Shown: positions 41,219 to 51,512 of the stretch, one piece after another
Layout of the letters: each line of letters opens with the position of its first letter
Numbering within the stretch: the stretch's first letter is position 1
Assembly (NCBI GenBank): GCA_964632175.1
Contig: CAZWBJ010000006.1
Coordinates: forward strand, 1-55,036
Direction of reading: 5' to 3'
Source of the DNA: Candidatus Hadarchaeota archaeon
GTDB taxonomy: Archaea; Hadarchaeota; Hadarchaeia; Hadarchaeales; JAWBSP01
DNA: 55,036 nt
Made by a program: the position numbers and the translations under genes
Notes under the pieces: model-generated
What the model saw: the letters and a program-made list of their open reading frames with translations, nothing else
The model's database searches: none
What the model was told of the DNA's origin: nothing

Positions 41219-42049
41219 TTAACTCTCGAGTCCAGAGCTTCGGGGAAGATTTTTGACCGTGGCACGCTTGAGCTGCGAGACGAAATCCTCCAGATATTTG
41301 AGCATCCGGTGGGGGGAATGGAGGTTCTTTGCCATGCACTCGATCAGCGAGCTCCCCACAACTACTCCGTCCGCTCCCCACGCGAGGATTTCCCTGACGT
41401 GTTGCGGTCGAGAAACGCCAAACCCCACAGCCACGGGAACTTTCGAGAAGCTTTTGATCCTTCGGATTAGTCCCCTGAGTCCCTTTGAGAGCTTCTCCCT
41501 TGCCCCAGTTACACCCAGAACCGAAACCAGGTATACAAAACCTCTGGAGCTCTCACAGATCTTCCGCAGTCTGGGTGCGGGGCTGGTGGGCGCGGCGAGG
41601 AGCACAAGGTCAAGATTCAGGAAGGAGAGGGTTTCCGAGAGTTCGCCTGCCTCCTCCACCGGAAGGTCGGGGACGATGAGCCCGTCCCCACCCGCCCTTG
41701 ACAGTTCCTCCGCGAACCTCTTTGGGCCGAACCGGAGAACAGGATTATAGTAGGAGAGGACTAGAAGTGGTGTTTCCTTCCCCTTCCTAAACTCCTTGAT
41801 GATTTTGAAGAGGAGTGCGGTGTTCATGCCCCCCTCGAGCGCTTTCTGGCTTGAGGCCTGGATGGTGGGTCCGTCGGCGATGGGGTCTGAAAAGGGCAGT
41901 CCTAGCTCAAGAATATCGGCATGCTTTGAAAGGACGCGGAGTACTGGCAACGTGAGGTCTGGGCGAGGGTATCCGGCCGTAGTGAAGCAGATGAGGGCTC
42001 CTTCTCCCCTCCGCCTTAGCTCCTCGAACTTTTCGGCTATCCTCCCCAT
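41219..42049 (-). CDS. trpA: Tryptophan synthase alpha
   Basis: [29 protein letters not shown]. Confidence 0.97.
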
Positions 42050-43230
42050 TTTCCCCCCAGATAGTTGGCCACGACTTCTACGTCCTTGTCCCCCCTCCCA
42101 GAGAGGTTGACCACCACTAGGGCACCCTCCCCCAATCTTCTCTTGATCTCCGGGAGGTAGGCCAAGGCGTGTGCGCTCTCCAACGCCGGGAGAATCCCTT
42201 CGGTCCTCGCCAGCAGGAGGAAGGCCTCTACGGCTTCCCGGTCGGTCACGGCCGAAACCTTAATCCTCCCCCTCTCTTTCAAGAACGCCAGCTCCGGCCC
42301 CACTCCTGGGTAGTCCAGTCCCGCGGCAATACTGTGGGTCTCCAAGATCTGCCCGAACCTGTCCTGAAGTACGTAGCTCATACAGCCGTGGAGCACACCC
42401 TCTGAGCCCGCCACCAGAGAGGCGGCATGTCTTCCTGTGCGCAGACCCAGACCCCCAGCCTCCACCCCGAAGAGCTCAACGTCCTCGTCTAGGAATTCGT
42501 AAAAAATCCCCATGGCGTTGCTGCCTCCCCCCACGCAGGCAACGATGGCATCGGGCAGCCTGCCTTCTCGCCTCAGCAGTTGTTCCCTCGTTTCCTCCCC
42601 GATGATCCTCTGAAAATCCCGGACCATCATGGGGTAGGGGTGTGGGCCCACCACCGAGCCGAGCAGGTAGTGGGTGGTCAGGACGTTCGTGGTCCAGTCT
42701 CGGAGGGCCTCGTTGATGGCATCCTTCAGGGTTTGTGATCCGGAGGAAACTTTTCTAACCTCCGCTCCCAGCAGTCTCATCCGGAAAACGTTCAGCCTCT
42801 GCCTCTCCATGTCTCTTTTCCCCATGTAGATGGTGCACTCCAGACCGAAGCTAGCGGCAGCGGAGGCGGTGGCCACGCCGTGCTGGCCGGCCCCTGTTTC
42901 GGCGATGATTCGCTTTTTCCTCATGAACTTCGCCAGCAGGCACTGACCCACCGCATTGTTCACCTTGTGGGCTCCCCCGAAGGCCAGATCCTCCCTCTTC
43001 AGGTAGATCCTCAGCCCTAGTTTTTCGGAGAGTCTCCCGGCGAAGGTGAGGGGGGTGGGCCTTCCGGCATCGTGCAAAATCCCTCGGAGCTCCTTTTGGA
43101 GCTTTTGATTCCTCTTAAACCTGAGATAGGCCTCTTCAAGCTCTTGGAGGGCGGGCATCAGGGTCTCCGGGACGTACTGTCCTCCGAATCTGCCGAATCT
43201 TCCATCTCTCGGATACTGGTCTTTATACAT
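42037..43230 (-). CDS. trpB: Tryptophan synthase beta (TrpB1)
   Basis: [41 protein letters not shown]. Confidence 0.97.
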
Positions 43231-43867
43231 GCCCAACGGCCTCGAGAAAGCGCTTCATTTTCTCCACACTCTTCCTCCCCGGGGCAACCTCTATCCCCGT
43301 TGAGACGTCCACCCCGTCTGGGTTCACGATCTCTATGGCTTCCCTCACGTTCTCGGGGTTTAGCCCCCCGGCCAGGAACACCGGCTTTCGGAGGGACTTC
43401 CTTATCTCCCTGCTGATCCTCCAATCGTGTGGGACTCCTGTACCCCCTCCCGTCGGTCCTTTCGTGTCCAGCAGCACGATGTCGGCAACCTCCTCGTACA
43501 GCTTGATTGAGCTTACGATGTCTTCAGCGCCCCGGCACTCGGGGGGGATGGAGAACACAAGGATCAATCCAGCGTGGGGTTTCAGCCTCCGCATTTCTTC
43601 CGGGGATAGATCCGGATGCAGTTGCAGGTAATCGGGATGTAAGGTCTCCGTCAGCCTGAGTACCCCGTTCAGATCCCTCGCCCGCGTGACGCAAACGCGC
43701 TGTATGGTTCGCGGAACTCTTTGCAGGAGCTCGGCAGCTTTGCTCGCGTCTAGGTTTCTGGGTGACTGCGGTATGCCCACAATCACACCCAGCAGATCGG
43801 GATGGAGGTGGCAGGCTGCCTCGACATCTGATGCCAGAGTGAAGCCGCAGAACTTAACCCTTACCAA
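43223..43867 (-). CDS. trpF: Phosphoribosylanthranilate isomerase
   Basis: [29 protein letters not shown]. Confidence 0.95.
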
Positions 43868-44600
43868 TCCTCACCATCTCCTCCACCGCTTTCTTCACGT
43901 CTGGGGAGCGCATGATGGCGGTGCCGACGAGCACGGCATCGGCCCCCGCTTCCAGCATTCTTTTAGCGTCGGAGGAAGAAGAAATTCCACTTTCGCTTAT
44001 CACCGTCACGTTCTCCGGAACCAGCGGTGCCAGCTCTATCGTGTGATTCAGGTCGACTTGAAGAGTTCTTAGATCCCGATTGTTGATCCCGAGCACCTCG
44101 GCACCGGCCTCAATGGCTAGTTCGAGTTCAGGCTTGTTGCATACCTCAACCACCGGCGTCATCCCCAAGTCTCTTGCCAGCTCAATGAAGGCCTTCAGTT
44201 TGTCTCCCAAGGCGGCCGCAATGAGGAGAACGGCGTCGGCCTTTAGCTCAGAAGACTCGTAAAGCTGGCTTTCGTATACGATAAAATCCTTCCGCAATAC
44301 TGGGACCCCAGTACGTCGTCTGACAAGGGGAATGAAGGAGGGATGACCCCCGAAGTACTTTTCTTCCGTGAGTACGGAGAGGGCAATGGCGCCGCCGCTG
44401 ACCATTTGCTCTGCCAGCGCTCCTGGGTCGGTTGGCTCCCTCAGCACCCCGGAAGGGGATCGGAACTTGATCTCGGCGATCAGCGGTATCCTATCTCGAG
44501 TGGATAGTATGGCTTTCCGGAGATCCCTTGCCCGAAAAGGCGAGGGTTTTGCCTGCTGGGGTGGCCTGATTTCGCTTATAATCCTTTCCAAGAAATTCAT
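43854..44600 (-). CDS. trpC: Indole-3-glycerol phosphate synthase
   Basis: IAEIKFRSPS, LSVLTE, LRKDF, GINNRDL, SESGI. Confidence 0.96.
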   Translation of the reverse strand: MNFLERIISEIRPPQQAKPSPFRARDLRKAILSTRDRIPLIAEIKFRSPSGVLREPTDPGALAEQMVSGGAIALSVLTEEKYFGGHPSFIPLVRRRTGVPVLRKDFIVYESQLYESSELKADAVLLIAAALGDKLKAFIELARDLGMTPVVEVCNKPELELAIEAGAEVLGINNRDLRTLQVDLNHTIELAPLVPENVTVISESGISSSSDAKRMLEAGADAVLVGTAIMRSPDVKKAVEEMVRIGKG

Positions 44601-45643
44601 GGGGTCAATCTCCGCGCCACGCTCGCGTCGCCACCCGTGGCTTCGATAAAGTCGATCAGTTTTCGGTAGGCTGCACCGGAGTCAATCGCCTCCCCTGCCG
44701 CTTCCAATGCATCTTTCATGTCATGAGAAATCCCGCCCACGACTATGGCGGCAGCAGCATTCAGCAGAACGATATCTCTCCTTGGGCCCTCCTTCCCCTT
44801 CAGGACCTCCAGCAGGAGCTTGGCGTTCTCCTCCAGATTCCCCCCGAGCAGATCCCCCGCTTTCGCCCTAGGGATCCCGAATTGCTCCGGTGTCAGTTCG
44901 AAGGTCTCCACATGGGAATCCTTCAGTTCGGAGACCTTGGTGGCCCCTAAGGTTGAGATTTCGTCTAGACCATCCATACCGTGGACGACCATTACCCTTT
45001 CCGAGCCAAGCCTCTTCAGAACCTGGCAGAGGGTCTCGGTGAGGGAAGGGTCGAACACACCCAGCAGCTGGGCTTTGGCTCCGGCCGGGTTGGTGAGCGG
45101 GCCTAGGATGTTGAAGACAGTTCTTATTCCCATCTCTCTTCTCGGCTGGAGCGCGTGCTTCATGCTTGGGTGGAAAACCGGTGCGAACATGAAGCCTATC
45201 CCCACCTCCTCTATGCAGCGCTCCACCTCCGCTGGTCCCAGATCTATCCTCGCGCCTAGGAACTCTAGGACATCCGCGCTTCCAGCTTTGCTGGTGACCG
45301 ACCGATTCCCGTGCTTCGCCACCCGCACGTTGGCCGCCGCCGCCACGAACATGGCCGCGGTGCTTATGTTAAAGGTCTTGATTCGGTCTCCCCCCGTTCC
45401 GCACGTGTCCACCAGCCTGCCCCCGACCCTAGGATTCACCTTCAGGCAGAACTCCCGCATGACGCTCGCGAGGGAGGTGATTTCCTCCACGGTCTCCCCC
45501 TTCATTCTGAGGCCCGTGAGGAAGGAAGCAACTTGGGCGGGGGTGGCTGAACCGCTCATGATGTCCCGCATGGCCTCCCCTGCTTCCTCCGGAGTGAGGT
45601 CTTGGAACTCCACCAGTTTCCTTATGGCTTCCTGGATTCCCAC
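44597..45643 (-). CDS. trpD: Anthranilate phosphoribosyltransferase
   Basis: DTCGTGGD, NIST, KHGNRS, GSAD, NILGPLTNP, GLDEIS. Confidence 0.97.
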   Translation of the reverse strand: MGIQEAIRKLVEFQDLTPEEAGEAMRDIMSGSATPAQVASFLTGLRMKGETVEEITSLASVMREFCLKVNPRVGGRLVDTCGTGGDRIKTFNISTAAMFVAAAANVRVAKHGNRSVTSKAGSADVLEFLGARIDLGPAEVERCIEEVGIGFMFAPVFHPSMKHALQPRREMGIRTVFNILGPLTNPAGAKAQLLGVFDPSLTETLCQVLKRLGSERVMVVHGMDGLDEISTLGATKVSELKDSHVETFELTPEQFGIPRAKAGDLLGGNLEENAKLLLEVLKGKEGPRRDIVLLNAAAAIVVGGISHDMKDALEAAGEAIDSGAAYRKLIDFIEATGGDASVARRLTP

Positions 45644-46212
45644 CTTTCCACCACCTCCAAAAAGTTCCTGAGAATCGTGCCCCCGCAGGCGGTGAGGATG
45701 GATTCGGGGTGAAATTGGAGGCCAAAAATGGGCTTCGTCCGGTGTCTCAGCCCCATGATCTCCCCGTCCTCGCTCTCCGCGCTGATCAGCAGGCAGCTCG
45801 GCAGGCTCTTCCCGTCCACGACCAAGGAATGATATCTAGTGGCCTGGAAGGGGTTTGGAACCCCCTTGAACAGCTCGCTCCCGTCGTGTTTGATGGTGGA
45901 GGTTTTTCCATGGACGAGCCTTTTTGCTTGGATGATCCTTCCCCCGAACGCGTAGGCAATGCTCTGGTGTCCGAGGCACACGCCCAGAATTGGAATTCTA
46001 CCGCTGAATCTCCTGACGGCCTCCACCGAGATCCCTGCCTCGGCGGGGGTCTTCGGGCCGGGGGAGATGACGAGGGCTTCCGGCATACTTTCCACCACTC
46101 TCTCCAGCGGCACGTCGTTTCTGAAGACCAACGGCTCGGCACCTAGCTCGCCCAACATCTGTACCAGATTGTAGACGAAGCTGTCGTAGTTGTCAATAAC
46201 CGCGACCCTCAT
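45622..46212 (-). CDS. trpG: Anthranilate synthase component II
   Basis: IDNYDSF, ISPGP, GVCLGHQ, RYHSL, QFHPES. Confidence 0.96.
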   Translation of the reverse strand: MRVAVIDNYDSFVYNLVQMLGELGAEPLVFRNDVPLERVVESMPEALVISPGPKTPAEAGISVEAVRRFSGRIPILGVCLGHQSIAYAFGGRIIQAKRLVHGKTSTIKHDGSELFKGVPNPFQATRYHSLVVDGKSLPSCLLISAESEDGEIMGLRHRTKPIFGLQFHPESILTACGGTILRNFLEVVERWESRKP

Positions 46213-47515
46213 CCCCTATCCCCGCGGCCTCTAGGAGGGCAGCAGCTTTGTTTTTGGTTTCCAGATACTCCTTCCACGGTACCGAGTCCGCGACCACTCC
46301 CGCCCCCACTTGGAGGTGAGCGCCCGAGTCCTGCGCCACGAGCGTGCGGATGGTGATGGCAAGGTTGAGCTCGCCACGGTAGCCTATGAACCCCACCCCG
46401 CCGGCGTAGATCCCCCTCCTTGTTGGCTCTAGTTCTTCGATTATCTCCATCGCCCTGAACTTGGGGGCCCCGGTCACGGTCCCGGCTGGGAAGGTTGCAC
46501 GAATCACATCAAAGACATCCTTGCCCGCCTGCAGCCTGCCCGTGACATCGCTCACGAGGTGCTGGACGTGACTGTATTTCTCAACCTTCATGAACTCCCC
46601 GACCCTCACGGAGCCGAAGCTACACACCCGCCCCAGGTCGTTCCTGGCGAGATCCACCAGCATCACATGCTCCGCCCTCTCCTTCTCGTCACGGCTCAGC
46701 TCCTCCTCCAGCCTCCGGTCCTCCTCTTCGGTTTTCCCCCTTCTCCTCGTGCCCGCGATGGGCCGGGTGAGAACTTCCCTTCCGTTAACTTGGACCAGCA
46801 TCTCCGGGCTGGAACCCACGATGGCCTTTCCAGGGAGATCCAGAAAGTACATGTAGGGGGAGGGGTTGATTTTCCTCAAACGGAGATAGAACGCCTCAAG
46901 CGGGGGGCATGGGCTGAGGGAAATTCTCCTCGAAAGCACGACCTGAATGATGTCCCCTTTCCTGATGTACCCCTTGGCCCTCTCGACCGCTGTCTCAAAG
47001 GATCGTCTCGTCATATTGGAGGTCACTCGGGAGGGGTGGCCGATTTTGGGTTTGCCCCCCTCCGGAGGCGGACTCCCCGCGCCTTCAAGGCTGTGTCTGC
47101 ACCTGATCACCTGGTTGGAGTAGTGATCGAAGACGAGGAGATTTCTGGGGAGGAAGAACTCCACCACTGGGTGATGGAGATCGTCTCTGGCCTTACTTTC
47201 AAGGGCGTGCAGGTGGCGCACGTAGTCGTATCCTATATAGCCAAAGACGCCTGCCACGTAAGGCGGCAGCTCGTCCTGGAATTTAAGCGTGTCCAGTTCC
47301 AGCTCTTTTCTCATCCTCTGGAGCGGGTCCTCCTCGGTCCCCTCATCACGAAAATAGAGAAGGGGGTCCCACCCAACTATGGAATATCTCCCAGACCTTC
47401 CCTTTTCCGCCGATTCCAGCAGAAAAGAAGCTCTAGCCCTCTTTCGCACCCTAAAGAAAATTCGCGCCGGGTCTGCGATAAGTTTTGAAACCTCGATTTT
47501 CGTTTCTACCTGCAT
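46193..47515 (-). CDS. trpE: Anthranilate synthase component I
   Basis: LLES, NPSPYM, SSPE, PIAGT, EHVMLVDLARND, FPAGTVTGAPK. Confidence 0.96.
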   Translation of the reverse strand: MQVETKIEVSKLIADPARIFFRVRKRARASFLLESAEKGRSGRYSIVGWDPLLYFRDEGTEEDPLQRMRKELELDTLKFQDELPPYVAGVFGYIGYDYVRHLHALESKARDDLHHPVVEFFLPRNLLVFDHYSNQVIRCRHSLEGAGSPPPEGGKPKIGHPSRVTSNMTRRSFETAVERAKGYIRKGDIIQVVLSRRISLSPCPPLEAFYLRLRKINPSPYMYFLDLPGKAIVGSSPEMLVQVNGREVLTRPIAGTRRRGKTEEEDRRLEEELSRDEKERAEHVMLVDLARNDLGRVCSFGSVRVGEFMKVEKYSHVQHLVSDVTGRLQAGKDVFDVIRATFPAGTVTGAPKFRAMEIIEELEPTRRGIYAGGVGFIGYRGELNLAITIRTLVAQDSGAHLQVGAGVVADSVPWKEYLETKNKAAALLEAAGIGDEGRGY

Positions 47516-47550
47516 CAGTTTTTAGTGCTTTTGACAATTAAATACCTTAA

Positions 47551-47566
47551 TGTACAAAAATGTTCA
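47551..47566. promoter_or_regulatory. Paired TRP boxes (putative TrpY operator) upstream of the trpE TATA box
   Basis: TGTACA-AAAA-TGTTCA. TGTACA is the Methanothermobacter TRP-box consensus. Minus-strand TATTTAAT lies at about 47538-47545. Confidence 0.75.
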
Positions 47567-48361
47567 ATAAATCAGAACCGAGTAAACCGAGGGGAGTTTG
47601 CGGATTTCCTCGATTACCTTGCCGGGGATGGGTCGGTCGGTGATGATGGTGAGTTTGGGCTGCGTGGTGAGATGCGGGTCATCGGCCACCGCCTGCCGGA
47701 TGTTTATTCCCCTGCTCGAGATGGCTCCCACAAGCTCTTTCAGAACTCCCGGCCGGCTGGCGTCTTTGGGGATTATCTCCAAGACTCCCCATCCCAGCTC
47801 TTTCCCCACGTCCCGGAGGTAGGGCAGGGGGCGGAGGTTGGTGAACACGGTACGTAGCTTTTCATCGCCTAGGATCCTCTTGACGGTCGCTGCCACCGTT
47901 CTCCTGTCCGTCCCGGCCGCCTTGGCGAGGGAAAGGGAGGTAATGCGCATATCCCCGCACTTTATCCTTCCCCTTTCATCGACCCTCAGCCCGTGGAGGA
48001 AGAGGGTCCTCGCCACTGCCAGCTCCCCCGGGTAACCCTTGAAGGCCTCCTCGATCTGGCTCCAGAACCTCACCCCCCCAATTCTTTTCGTTTCCTCCCC
48101 CAAACCTCCGCTGATGACCACCCTCATGAAGGTCTCCACAAAGTTTGGGTCGAGCCCCAGCCTCCCGCCCTCGATCCTGGCCCTCCTCAGCACCTCCCTC
48201 TCCCTTCTTTCGTCCCTCAGCTCTTTTCCGAGTTTTTTCTTGAGGCGTGCCGTTTCCCCCGCCAGCTTCACCCGTTCCGCCAGTAATTGTAGAAGTTCCC
48301 CGTCAATCTCGTCAATCCGCTTTCTTATCCTCACCAGCGTCTCCTCACTCAATCCTGGCAC
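47564..48361 (-). CDS. Chorismate mutase (AroQ) :: TrpY-family (HTH+ACT) regulator fusion
   Basis: N-terminal IRKRIDEID..LLAERV..K..RDERRE (AroQ); C-terminal FWSQIEEAFKGYP..GTDRRTV..INIRQAVADDP..KLTIITDRPIPG (TrpY/COG2150). Confidence 0.88.
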   Translation of the reverse strand: MPGLSEETLVRIRKRIDEIDGELLQLLAERVKLAGETARLKKKLGKELRDERREREVLRRARIEGGRLGLDPNFVETFMRVVISGGLGEETKRIGGVRFWSQIEEAFKGYPGELAVARTLFLHGLRVDERGRIKCGDMRITSLSLAKAAGTDRRTVAATVKRILGDEKLRTVFTNLRPLPYLRDVGKELGWGVLEIIPKDASRPGVLKELVGAISSRGINIRQAVADDPHLTTQPKLTIITDRPIPGKVIEEIRKLPSVYSVLIY

Positions 48362-49199
48362 CCCCCCTCGACGGGCACGTGACGATGATTCTCCCTTCTC
48401 TTTTGCCCCACACCTCTTTTATCTCCTCCACATCTCGGGGGTGGGCGATGGCGGCAACGGCCGGCCCCTTTCCCGTGAGTCCAGCCGCGACTGCCCCCTT
48501 TGAAATGGCTTCTAGGGCGATCCTATGATCCTGGTTGAGGGCGTGTGAGTAGAGCAAGCCGTTGAGGGTCATGGCCCCGAAAATGTTTCCAAGAAGGGCC
48601 TGTTTGTGGGCCACCTCCACCAGGTCTGCTATGCTCCGGAAGGAAGAGGGGCGCACCTTGGAGGTGTAGAGCTTCGAGGGAGGGACGAAGATCACCACCC
48701 TGTAGGAGGGCGGAAGCTCGAATCTCCTGAGGATCCTCCTCCTAAGGTTGTCGGTGATCACCCCGCAGCCCAGCAAGGAGGCGGCGGCGTCATCGAAGGC
48801 GCCCGTGAGGGTCACACCCGCCTCGAAGGATGCCTCAATCCCGAGCCTCAGGACCTCCCTCCATTCAGGCTCCACGCCCAAACTCGCCAGCGTGGCCAGA
48901 ACCGCCGCGTTCGCCGCCGCGCTGCTGCTGGAGAGCCCAACCGCAACTGGAATTTCGGAGTAGGTCCTAATTCTTGCCCCGCACCTCTTCCCGTACTTCT
49001 GGAGGACTTTCCTGACGCACAGCTCCACGAGCTTCGGGCTCTCTCGATGTCCCACCACCTCTCCTCTAACCTTGGTACCGGTGGGGTCGAGTTCAACCTC
49101 TGCTCTCAGCCTGAGCTCCACGCCGAAGGCTGCGCCCTTGCCCGTTGCCATGGCGTTAACGACGGTGACGGAGGCGCAGGAGGAAGCGGTTCCCTTCAA
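48345..49199 (-). CDS. aroK: Archaeal (GHMP-type) shikimate kinase
   Basis: [39 protein letters not shown]. Confidence 0.93.
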
Positions 49200-50290
49200 G
49201 CGAAGCGGTCAGGGTTTACCTTTCCAGCCCTCAGCAGGTGATCCGCAAGCACCAGGGCCAGCATGGCCTCTGCGACCGGCACGATTCTGGGGCAAAGGTT
49301 GGGGTCGAAGCGTCCCTTCAGCCTTATCTCCGTCTCCTTCATGGTGGACAGGTCCACCGTCCGCTGGGGCAGTGAGATGGATGGGGTGGGCTTGACGGCC
49401 AGCCTGACCCTGATGGGGCCGCCCACGCTTATCCCGCCGAGAATTCCTCCCGCCCGGTTTCCCCCAAGGGCGGGTTTACCCCCCACGAGGACGATGGGGT
49501 CGTTCGCCTGGGACCCCCGCATGCGGGCGACGGAGAACCCGGCCCCTATCTCCACACCCTTCACCCCCCCGATGGACATCATGGCCTTCGCAATGTCGGC
49601 GTCGAGCTTGTCGAAAACCGGCTCCCCCAGTCCGGGCGGAACGTTTACGGCTACGACCTCCACAATTCCTCCCGTGCTGTCCCCCTCCTTCCAAGCCTTT
49701 AGAACCTCCTCCTCCATTTTTTTTGCCACCTCCGGGTCGGCACACCTCATAGGGTTGGTTTCCGCGTTTCTCCGGATCTCCTCCCAGCTCACCTCCCTGC
49801 CAACCGAGATTCCCGCGGCCTCAACAGTGTGGGCGGCGATCTCCACCCCTTGGCTGACGAGGAGTTTCTTCGCCACGGCACCGGCGGCAACCCTCCCAAC
49901 CGTCTCTCTCCCCGCTGCCCTCCCCCCGCCCCGGTAGTCCACGTGACCGTACTTCAGCCAGTAGGAGAGGTCGGCGTGTCCCGGTCTCGGCTTATACTTG
50001 AACTTTTCGTAGTCCTCCGACCTCGCCTCCACGTTCTCCACCACCATGCAGATGGGGGTTCCAAGGGTTCTTCCCTCAAAGACGCCAGACAGTATCCTCA
50101 CACGGTCCGGTTCCCTCCTCGGGCTCGTTACCTTCGACTGCCCCGGTCTCCTCCTGTCCAGCTCCCTTTGAATCTCCTCCTCGCTCAGGGGCATCCCTGC
50201 TGGGACTCCTTCGACTACCACCCCAACGGCTGGACCATGGGACTCCCCAAAGGTTGTGACGCGAAACACCTTCCCAAAGGAGCTTCCCAT
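49196..50290 (-). CDS. aroC: Chorismate synthase
   Basis: [38 protein letters not shown]; start trimmed to MGSSFG. Confidence 0.97.
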
Positions 50291-50384: not shown

Positions 50385-51512
50385 ATGCAAAGGTACGATA
50401 TCGTGGTGGTGGGGGCGGGTCCCGCTGGCCTCTCCTTCGCTCGAGCAGCGTCGGCCGAGGCGAGGGTTCTTGTGTGCGAGATGCAGGCCTCGGTTGGCGG
50501 AAACACTTTCTCCACTTGGCTGCCGAGGGACGCCCTGCCGGGGGAACTGGCGAGGGCGGTGGTTCAGAGGACCAAGGAGGTCAAAGTGAGGGGACCGAAA
50601 TCCGAACTGGCTTCTAGGGTGGAGGGTGTGGTTCTGGACTGGAAGTGGGTGGTCAGGCTCCTCGCGCTCGAGGCGAGAAGGAGGGGGGCGGAGATATGGA
50701 CAAGCAGCCCCGCCAAGGAGCTCCTCCTGAAGGAGGGGAAGGCGGTGGGGGTGCGGCTGGAGGCAGGCTCGTGGAGGGAGGAGGTCAGGAGCGAGGTCGT
50801 GGTGGACGCGAGCGGCTGCTCCAGCGAATGGTCGGGCCTCTTCCCCCGGCTGCTCGGGAGAAAGCCCAAGCCGGAGGAAACGGTCTTCTCGGGGGAGCAC
50901 CTCCTAGCAGGCGCCGACCCTGAGGACTCGGTGGAGTTCCACTTCGGTTCCTACCTCGCGCCGCTGGGGAACGGCTGGGTTCACCCTTTTGGCAGCGGCT
51001 TCGCTGTTGCAGGAATTCAGGGCCTGAGAATTCACCCCGAAGCCTCGCTGGACGAGTTTGTCGCCAAGGTCCGGAGGCTCGGCCGGGCGGCACCCGTTGC
51101 CTCCACTAGGGGCATGGCGGTGGATGTCTCCTTGGAGAGTTTCTGCTCGGACGGGATCTTGGCGATTGGGGGGGCAGGCTGGCAGGTGCTGGCCCTATCC
51201 CGCGGCGGTCTCCTTCAGGCCATGAAGGCGGGGGAGATGGCCGCAAAGGTGGTCTTGGAGGCGCTGACCGAGGGAGATGTTTCCAAGGAGGGTCTCTCGG
51301 AGTACGAGAGGCTCTGGAGGAGGGAGCTCGGTCCGGACTTCGAGCTTGAGAGGGCGCTTTACTCCGCCCTGTCGCGGTCTTGGGATCAGAACGTGGAGAG
51401 GCTGCTGGAAGGGATGGAGAGGGAGCCGGCTCTCCTCAGGGACTTTGCAGCGCTTCTCGCAGGGGTGGAGCCGGGAAGGGCAGCGAAGAAGCTTCTAGAA
51501 GTGCTGGGCTGA
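50385..51512 (+). CDS. Geranylgeranyl reductase-family flavoprotein, degenerate
   Basis: VVVGAGPAG Rossmann motif, [23 protein letters not shown]; the GDAAG motif is altered. Confidence 0.75.

Follow-up and report, generated by a model that had tools for sequence, protein, structure and literature searches.

A chorismate mutase fused to a TrpY-type regulator in the Hadarchaeales, and a putative operator at their trp promoters

Introduction

In Methanothermobacter thermautotrophicus, TrpY, a stand-alone protein of ~167 aa, binds 'TRP boxes' located between the divergent trpY and trpE genes and represses trpEGCFBAD with tryptophan (Trp), as described in the accessible text of PMC6737238. Here we analyse a gene in which a TrpY-type module is fused behind a chorismate mutase (CM) of the AroQ type. 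This gene, hereafter the fusion, lies at positions 47564-48361 (minus strand) of a 55,036-nt stretch of DNA, the window, which comes from contig CAZWBJ010000006.1 (C6) of the Candidatus Hadarchaeota archaeon assembly GCA_964632175.1. TrpY is also said to regulate trpB2, going by a title of Karr et al. from 2008 cited in PMC3729527.

The fusion resembles M. thermautotrophicus TrpY by its match to the full-length TrpY profile (NF053754, COG2150) and by its layout, a helix-turn-helix (HTH) part followed by an ACT domain. The GTACA-type operator that we predict at trpE and trpB2 is likewise reminiscent of the targets of TrpY, as far as these can be taken from the accessible text of PMC6737238 and from the Karr 2008 title. 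The differences are nevertheless substantial: the fusion stands behind an enzyme, and its gene is co-directional with trpE inside an aro operon instead of being divergent from it. Autoregulation, moreover, is not expected for the fusion, as no operator is found at the promoter of its own operon in this genome, and in most genomes of the order any action would be exerted in trans on a distant trp operon.

The enzyme half shares with AroQ CMs such as that of Escherichia coli (EcCM, structure 1ecm) the three-helix fold and the residues R11', R28, K39, D48, R51, E52 and Q88, the last being replaced by E here. Unlike these enzymes, the fusion does not conserve the equivalent of S84 and scores under the NCBIfam cut-offs for CM equivalogs. 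Its C-terminal partner is also different from that of other AroQ CMs, being a transcription-factor module and not a prephenate dehydratase (PDT), a prephenate dehydrogenase (PDH) or a DAHP synthase. Like the P-protein (CM-PDT-ACT), it contains AroQ and ACT in one chain. Unlike the P-protein and CM-PDT-PDH proteins, it has an HTH between CM and ACT, and PDT and PDH are encoded apart from it, by pheA and tyrA on another contig (C2). In its accessible part, a survey of archaeal gene fusions lists CM-PDT and CM-PDT-PDH fusions and not CM-TrpY (PMC11237513).

Another regulator to be compared is Tar (TK0271) of Thermococcus kodakarensis, a MarR-like activator that binds TGGACA-N8-TGTCCA upstream of the B recognition element (BRE) and TATA box, according to the accessible text of PMC6737238. 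From the same text, Tar and the fusion have in common that they regulate aromatic amino acid genes, which is only predicted for the fusion, and that their genes are located inside an aro operon. Tar is an unfused activator there, whereas the fusion carries an enzyme and its regulatory part is of the TrpY type, not MarR-like.

Bifunctional enzyme-repressors, or 'trigger enzymes', are represented by PutA, BirA and NadR. Like these proteins, the fusion would unite in one polypeptide a metabolic enzyme and a DNA-binding regulator acting in the same area of metabolism, the domain families of PutA, BirA and NadR being unrelated to those found here. PutA, BirA and NadR each regulate genes of the pathway in which their enzyme works, while the enzyme of the fusion opens the way to phenylalanine (Phe) and tyrosine (Tyr) and its regulator would close the one to Trp. 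We know of no archaeal example of this enzyme-repressor layout.

Results

An AroQ-type chorismate mutase and a TrpY-type module in one reading frame

The fusion gene is a single open reading frame (ORF) of 265 codons plus stop, as claimed in the initial annotation, with a GTG start that overlaps the 3' end of aroK by 17 nt. CM_2 (Pfam PF01817) matches residues 12-84 (profile 1-73 of 80; 71.9 bits for a cut-off of 27), and TrpY_fam (NCBIfam NF053754) matches residues 100-262 over the whole profile (1-163 of 163; 193.2 bits for a cut-off of 180). Pfam ACT covers residues 203-257, and no PDT or PDH domain is found in the Pfam scan of the protein. From the CM_2 match, the 1ecm alignment and an AlphaFold2 model, the CM domain extends over residues 1-92 (48086-48361), with helices at residues 6-44, 51-67 and from 72 onward. 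It is followed by a Gly-rich junction (residues 90-97; 48071-48094), which is the sole stretch with a predicted local distance difference test (pLDDT) value below 50 and is variable in an alignment of 32 fusions. The predicted DNA-binding, N-terminal part of the TrpY module then occupies residues 100-175 (47837-48064), as delimited by TrpY_fam, the model, an invariant DRR motif and profile-profile alignment, and the ACT-type ligand-binding domain, supported by Pfam, the model and Foldseek, occupies residues 190-265 (47567-47794).

The active-site residues of E. coli CM, which we take to be R11', R28, K39, D48, R51, E52, S84 and Q88, were mapped on the fusion through the 1ecm alignment. R13, R30, K41, D50, R53 and E54 correspond to the first six of them with a constant offset of +2, so that the AroQ catalytic-type residues announced by the initial annotation (R13, R30, K41 and D50-x-x-R53-E54) are all found and aligned to E. 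coli CM. These six residues are invariant in the 32 aligned fusions, which are 44-92% identical to the window protein. The position of Q88 is E90 in the fusion, and is E or Q in 32/32 fusions. In the AlphaFold2 model (mean pLDDT 79), the CM part forms the three AroQ helices and superposes on 1ecm_B with a target-normalised template modelling (TM) score of 0.87 and a root-mean-square deviation (rmsd) of 1.0 over 86 columns. Judged by its sequence, the CM half thus looks catalytically competent.

The likeness of the C-terminal part to TrpY, also put forward initially, is borne out by the full-length match to NF053754 above its curated cut-off. The motifs cited in its support are all present in the fusion, namely W100-x-Q-I, F107-x-GYP, D152-R-R-T-V, I221-RQA...DDP and L237-TIIT..PIPG, the only correction being that the fourth had been given as IRQA..DP, one dot short. 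When the 32 fusions are compared to 20 stand-alone relatives by profile-profile alignment (hhalign), a probability of 100% is obtained over 169 columns. D152-R153-R154 is invariant in both sets, and so are further motifs. In the model, residues 142-149 and 153-165 form the two helices of a predicted HTH, with DRR at the start of the second, recognition helix, and residues 192-264 adopt the beta-alpha-beta-beta-alpha-beta fold of ACT domains. The nearest folds found by Foldseek are ACT domains of enzymes (phosphoglycerate dehydrogenase, IlvN), and AsnC/Lrp regulators match weakly; no solved TrpY structure was found. An internal start that would give a separate TrpY was considered and rejected, as W100 is preceded by F in this clade and by varying residues elsewhere.

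The fusion is a trait of the whole order

We searched 66 genomes of the phylum, in which the order carrying the fusion, labelled Hadesarchaea/Hadarchaeum (Hadarchaeales), comprises five families. The fusion is present in 61/66 genomes and in all five families of this one order, uninterrupted and without stops over approximately residues 4-265, with 41-65% identity outside its own genome (G000). It was not found in five genomes, namely G001, the sole representative of another order, and G010, G019, G020 and G023, which are 56-89% complete. The protein database contains 50 clusters of fusions of 245-265 aa, 44-92% identical and coming from several sources, the value of 92% being attained among metagenome proteins. 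Where named, they are labelled 'chorismate mutase [Hadesarchaea / Hadarchaeum]' or 'predicted regulator of amino acid metabolism with ACT domain/chorismate mutase'. The CM-TrpY fusion is thus confirmed as a real gene and a lineage trait of the whole order.

An assembly or frameshift artefact joining two genes has in consequence a practically negligible probability. We found no evidence in favour of it, and the same frame is read in two contigs of the assembly, in 60 other genomes and in the 50 protein clusters, which also answers the objection, raised at the outset, that there might be two separate genes. The own assembly consists of 54 contigs, of about 1.06-1.08 Mb in total, and is 92.7% complete. 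One of these contigs, C18 (19,360 nt), is 99.8% identical to positions 35286-54534 of C6 in reverse orientation and carries an identical ORF. The two CM/TrpY matches in the own genome are therefore one locus assembled twice and not a paralogue or a duplication, and because of this second assembly, whole-genome searches show single-copy genes as if they were present twice.

The fusion is also the only bearer of its two families in these organisms. CM_2 is found over cut-off in 61/66 genomes, once in each and always at the coordinates of the fusion. TrpY_fam is found in 60/66 genomes (over cut-off in 58/66), at exactly one locus each, which is always the fusion, so that these organisms have no other TrpY-family protein. 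No CM of the AroH type (CM_1) is found in the own genome (92.7% complete), yet monofunctional tyrA (PDH) and pheA (PDT) genes are present on contig C2. The fusion is thus the only candidate for the housekeeping CM. On contig C2, the ~60300-65500 region (locus L175, 3297-8475) contains genes for 2-amino-3,7-dideoxy-D-threo-hept-6-ulosonate (ADH) synthase and 3-dehydroquinate (DHQ) synthase II, together with aroD, aroE, tyrA and pheA, and no CM domain; this aromatic cluster is the archaeal DAHP-independent route.

The search for the CM + TrpY architecture that had been suggested for archaea was also extended to 1.84 billion protein representatives by exhaustive HMMER search. It yields only one further full-length fusion cluster (P0084), the remaining full-domain-length TrpY-like matches being stand-alone proteins of ~166-172 aa. 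Two other matches in two stretches are tandem CM_2 proteins and were rejected as CM-TrpY fusions. P0051, an entry of 167 aa from a Hadesarchaea metagenome-assembled genome, was rejected as a stand-alone TrpY: it is 80% identical to the TrpY half of fusions of family f3 and is most likely a truncated gene call. A homologue search with the TrpY part alone gives 25 matches and adds little, and the ten nearest representatives have only generic names, such as 'ACT domain-containing protein'. Another protein, P0169 (285 aa), has an N-terminal part of a DeoC/LacD-type aldolase (profile 3-147 of 229), followed by a part similar to TrpY residues 141-259 with ACT, and may represent either a further fusion of an aro enzyme to TrpY or a chimeric contig.

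The fusion probably goes back to a single event in the ancestor of the order, in which aroQ and trpY, lying side by side before trpE, were joined. Both domain families, as well as enzyme-repressor fusions, are already known, while this pairing is apparently unreported: it was not found in the searchable literature, and the supplements of PMC11237513 may list it.

A phased TGTACA-type operator at the trpE promoter

The 48 nt between the fusion and trpE contain, with the end of the fusion gene, a trpE promoter and a predicted operator (47525-47568, minus strand). In the direction of transcription, box 1 (47561-47566) is TGAACA, with one mismatch, and contains the TGA stop codon of the fusion; box 2 (47551-47556) is an exact TGTACA. 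They are followed by a TATA-like element (47537-47544), by a degenerate box 3 with two mismatches (47531-47536) and by the trpE ATG (47513-47515). This ATG is located just past the promoter, hence a trpE mRNA that, from the sequence, would be leaderless or nearly so. Scored with a matrix derived from 39 sites found in other genomes, this site is the best of the whole genome (29.5 bits), and reversed-sequence controls give no site above 12 bits. The stretch 47520-47570, which the initial annotation had proposed for DNA binding, consequently holds the best operator match of the genome. The TGTACA motif is itself rare in the 55-kb window, with 2 occurrences for 9.2 expected from composition.

A run of five T is present on the coding strand at 47556-47560, between boxes 1 and 2 and right after the fusion stop. 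Oligo-T runs can terminate archaeal transcription, and the end of the aro operon transcript may thus fall within the trpE operator.

The matrix search finds no other site above 12 bits on C6, including upstream of aroC, and autoregulation of the operon of the fusion through such an operator is thus not expected. The next independent site of the genome, a weak one (13.2 bits), is located 8 nt upstream of trpB2 on contig C22 (8046-9449, locus L176). This TrpB2-type gene (NF009057, 747.8 bits) is divergent from a LysE/RhtB-type exporter gene, which may belong to the Trp regulon.

The operator is conserved across the order

The same element is found wherever trpE follows the fusion, with the layout TGTACA-N4-TGTACA, ~7 nt, BRE/TATA (C/T)TTAAATA and GTACA. 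In the consensus of 39 sites, three boxes spaced by 10 and 20 bp centre to centre flank the BRE/TATA, a spacing that places them on one face of the helix. The strict pattern GNACA-N4-TGTACA-N6-9-TTWAA, searched in the 66 genomes, occurs in 24 of them, and the reversed pattern used as a control occurs in none. Of the 26 distinct strict loci, 21 are found upstream of trpE at a distance of 100-180 nt, and most of these are remote from the fusion gene. The other five adjoin trpB2 (G010, G012, G053, G054, G055), three of them with a divergent LysE-type translocator gene as well.

Genomes lacking a strict match were examined with matrices. A four-site matrix detects the element in 19/20 trpE-upstream regions from such genomes (26-48 bits), and the 39-site matrix is positive in 13/14 further trpE-upstream regions (41.8-66.1 bits), the maximum being 8.9 bits in a control set of 78 segments (900 nt each) of the same order. 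The operator is thus found before trpE in 52/53 genomes examined, whether the fusion is adjacent or not (G009 being read by eye). Outside these 53, seven genomes have TrpE-like matches, which are only paralogues of <=47% identity in six of them and a gene at a contig end in the last one.

TGTACA boxes accompany stand-alone TrpY in methanogens

Five named genomes with a stand-alone TrpY were searched for TGTACA-N4-TGTACA with one mismatch allowed, and 20 loci were inspected, 16 from the search and 4 added to them. Most single matches do not exceed chance in these AT-richer genomes (per genome, 9-12 forward matches versus 2-10 in controls). In 4/5 genomes, phased boxes nevertheless lie directly before trp genes, in six regions altogether, the fifth genome giving no match. 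They precede trpB2 and trpC-trpE in Methanocella sp. MCL-LM, trpD-trpF and trpC-trpB-trpA in Methanococcoides sp. FTZ1, and a trpG-like gene in both Methanosarcina hadiensis and Methanosarcina sp. T3. In each case, two to four boxes of the TGTACA type follow one another with a 10-bp phase (loci L194/L206, L198, L195/L199, L211, L196, L213). TGTACA boxes on trp promoters are in this way connected with archaea that possess TrpY, independently of any assumed consensus.

Genes surrounding the fusion

The gene order on the minus strand is aroC, aroK, fusion and, after the 48-nt gap, trpE, G, D, C, F, B, A. trpE (46193-47515; Pfam, NCBIfam) encodes anthranilate synthase component I and is the first gene of trpEGDCFBA (41219-47515). 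aroK (48345-49199) encodes an archaeal GHMP-type shikimate kinase (TIGR01920, 267.6 bits), and aroC (49196-50290; Pfam, NCBIfam) the chorismate synthase. The aroC ORF reaches 50515 but the match to its family begins at residue 84-85, which makes the ATG at 50290 the probable start and the N-terminal extension of ~75 codons spurious. With this start, a divergent promoter region of 94 nt faces a gene for a FAD-dependent oxidoreductase (50385-51512, plus strand).

aroK is directly upstream of the fusion in 30/30 loci and aroC is upstream of aroK in 29/30, the contig of the remaining one beginning inside aroK. At most loci without an adjacent trpE, a conserved gene of the opposite strand converges on the 3' end of the fusion, a few nt past its stop. 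Many trpE matches were flagged as having one TGA inside; tblastn of three cases shows no internal stop, and the flag probably comes from their own stop being read through.

Discussion

Taken together, our results make it likely that the fusion is a bifunctional protein of the Hadarchaeales, acting as their housekeeping AroQ chorismate mutase and as the repressor of their trp pathway. One protein would then probably act on both arms of the chorismate fork. The N-terminal AroQ domain would convert chorismate to prephenate, for Phe and Tyr, and the C-terminal TrpY module would bind the three GTACA boxes placed in phase on either side of the BRE/TATA at the trpE promoter. In other genomes, it would bind the same operator on the trpB2 promoter, sometimes with the divergent gene of a LysE-type exporter. 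We infer that the fusion has CM activity, binds DNA and represses rather than activates: its binding would block TBP/TFB or RNA polymerase when an amino acid, most probably Trp, occupies the ACT domain. As the fusion would be transcribed with aroC-aroK from a promoter without such an operator, the supply of CM would be constitutive, together with chorismate synthesis, and the competing anthranilate branch would be shut off in trans. It is tempting to speculate that a chain dimerising through both its AroQ and its ACT domain would favour higher oligomers, able to span boxes that are 10, 20 and 30 bp apart.

Several observations weigh against this proposal. In T. kodakarensis, which relies on Tar, the TrpY homologue neither binds nor regulates the trp promoter, according to the accessible text of PMC6737238, so that belonging to the TrpY family is by itself no proof of trp regulation. 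In the Halobacteriota (Methanophagales, Methanosarcinales, Methanocellales), 80 stand-alone TrpY loci have no trp gene within 2.5 kb, which, for the Methanocella, Methanococcoides and Methanosarcina genomes with phased boxes, also suggests that TrpY acts in trans there too. The published TRP-box consensus is taken here to be TGTACA. The neighbours conserved around the fusion are aroC-aroK and not trpE. The location between aroC-aroK and trpE that the initial annotation had emphasised is true of the window, but trpE adjoins the fusion in only about 11/61 genomes, and is on a different contig from the fusion in the two other genomes of the same genus. The cases of adjacency are distributed over 4/5 families, which suggests that the adjacency is ancestral and has often been lost since.

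Further reservations concern the operator and the enzyme. The operator of the window is the most degenerate of the set. In G025 (94% complete), the sole exception among the 53 genomes, the fusion is present and boxes 1-2 are absent at both trpE copies examined, a TATA-proximal box remaining at one copy only and no box at the other (contig C2 of that genome, loci L087 and L187); G025 may be seen as a natural case of 'operator loss'. As far as sequence tells, it is also possible that another transcription factor binds the boxes. In the CM half, G86 takes the place of E. coli S84, a position that is not conserved. Helix 3 ends in a Gly-rich stretch of low model confidence (residues 90-97), and the scores are under the NCBIfam equivalog cut-offs (PRK06285, 61.1 versus 77; TIGR01791 CM_archaeal, 53.1 versus 66.95).

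Part of these points would be explained if the fusion were only an allosteric enzyme, whose HTH-ACT part would be the amino-acid sensor of the CM, as in P-proteins, having lost DNA binding, with a different factor acting on the GTACA operator. ACT domains commonly regulate enzymes of aromatic pathways, the closest folds of the C-terminal part are regulatory ACT domains of enzymes, and the conserved aroC-aroK context, the T. kodakarensis homologue and the 80 loci remote from trp genes point in the same direction. Nevertheless, the whole TrpY profile, including its HTH part, is matched above a curated cut-off. The HTH motif D152-R153-R154 is invariant in fusions that are otherwise as little as 44% identical and is common to their stand-alone relatives, which is unexpected for a vestigial DNA-binding surface. 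An operator resembling TRP boxes is, furthermore, kept on trpE and trpB2 in organisms whose sole TrpY-family protein is the fusion, and boxes of the same kind are found on trp promoters in organisms with a stand-alone TrpY. We therefore regard a mere enzyme as improbable. The converse, a regulator in which a catalytically inactive CM domain would sense chorismate/prephenate or mediate dimerisation, could account for the equivalog scores, the loss of S84 and the Gly-rich end of helix 3. It is contradicted by the fusion being the sole CM_2 in 61/66 genomes, the own genome having PDH and PDT but no CM_1, by six invariant catalytic residues with E or Q throughout at the position of Q88, and by the superposition of the fold on E. 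coli CM with an rmsd of 1.0; we consider it very improbable.

As for the relationship between the two halves, both activities could exist independently, in a neutral 'Rosetta stone' fusion of neighbours devoid of a regulatory meaning of its own. The presence of trpE behind the fusion in 4/5 families, which makes aroQ next to trpY-trpE the likely ancestral order, and the short, variable junction of low confidence would fit such a history. On the other hand, a return to split genes is seen nowhere in the order and no genome has a separate TrpY or CM_2, the sole 'stand-alone' entry of 167 aa being probably a truncated gene call. Independence of the halves is thus possible without being what we would expect; it overlaps with the bifunctional protein that we favour, which needs no coupling, and the probabilities that we give to these readings consequently do not sum to 1. 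At the other extreme, the fusion could be a true branch-point switch with coupled halves, in which Trp at the ACT domain would both lock the trpE/trpB2 operators and raise CM activity, or in which, alternatively or additionally, chorismate or prephenate in the CM site would alter the affinity for the operator. Such a coupling, which we put forward as a doubtful extension, would have one protein integrate the precursor and the end product and so set the shares of chorismate that go to Trp and to Phe/Tyr.

Ligands and operators are known for very few transcription regulators of archaea. For a whole order of uncultured subsurface archaea, the present analysis gives, on sequence alone, a putative regulator, its operator and a small regulon made of the trpE operon, trpB2 and a LysE-type exporter gene. 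As TGTACA boxes appear to mark the trp promoters where TrpY-family proteins occur, they may help to tell which homologues regulate trp genes. The protein is small (265 aa), likely thermostable, from our impression of its charged, hyperthermophile-like composition, and its target DNA is defined to ~40 bp, which makes the system tractable and the coupling of enzyme and repressor testable in vitro. Finally, the layout is in itself unusual, as the enzyme that opens the way to Phe and Tyr is fused to a regulator that would close the competing Trp branch.

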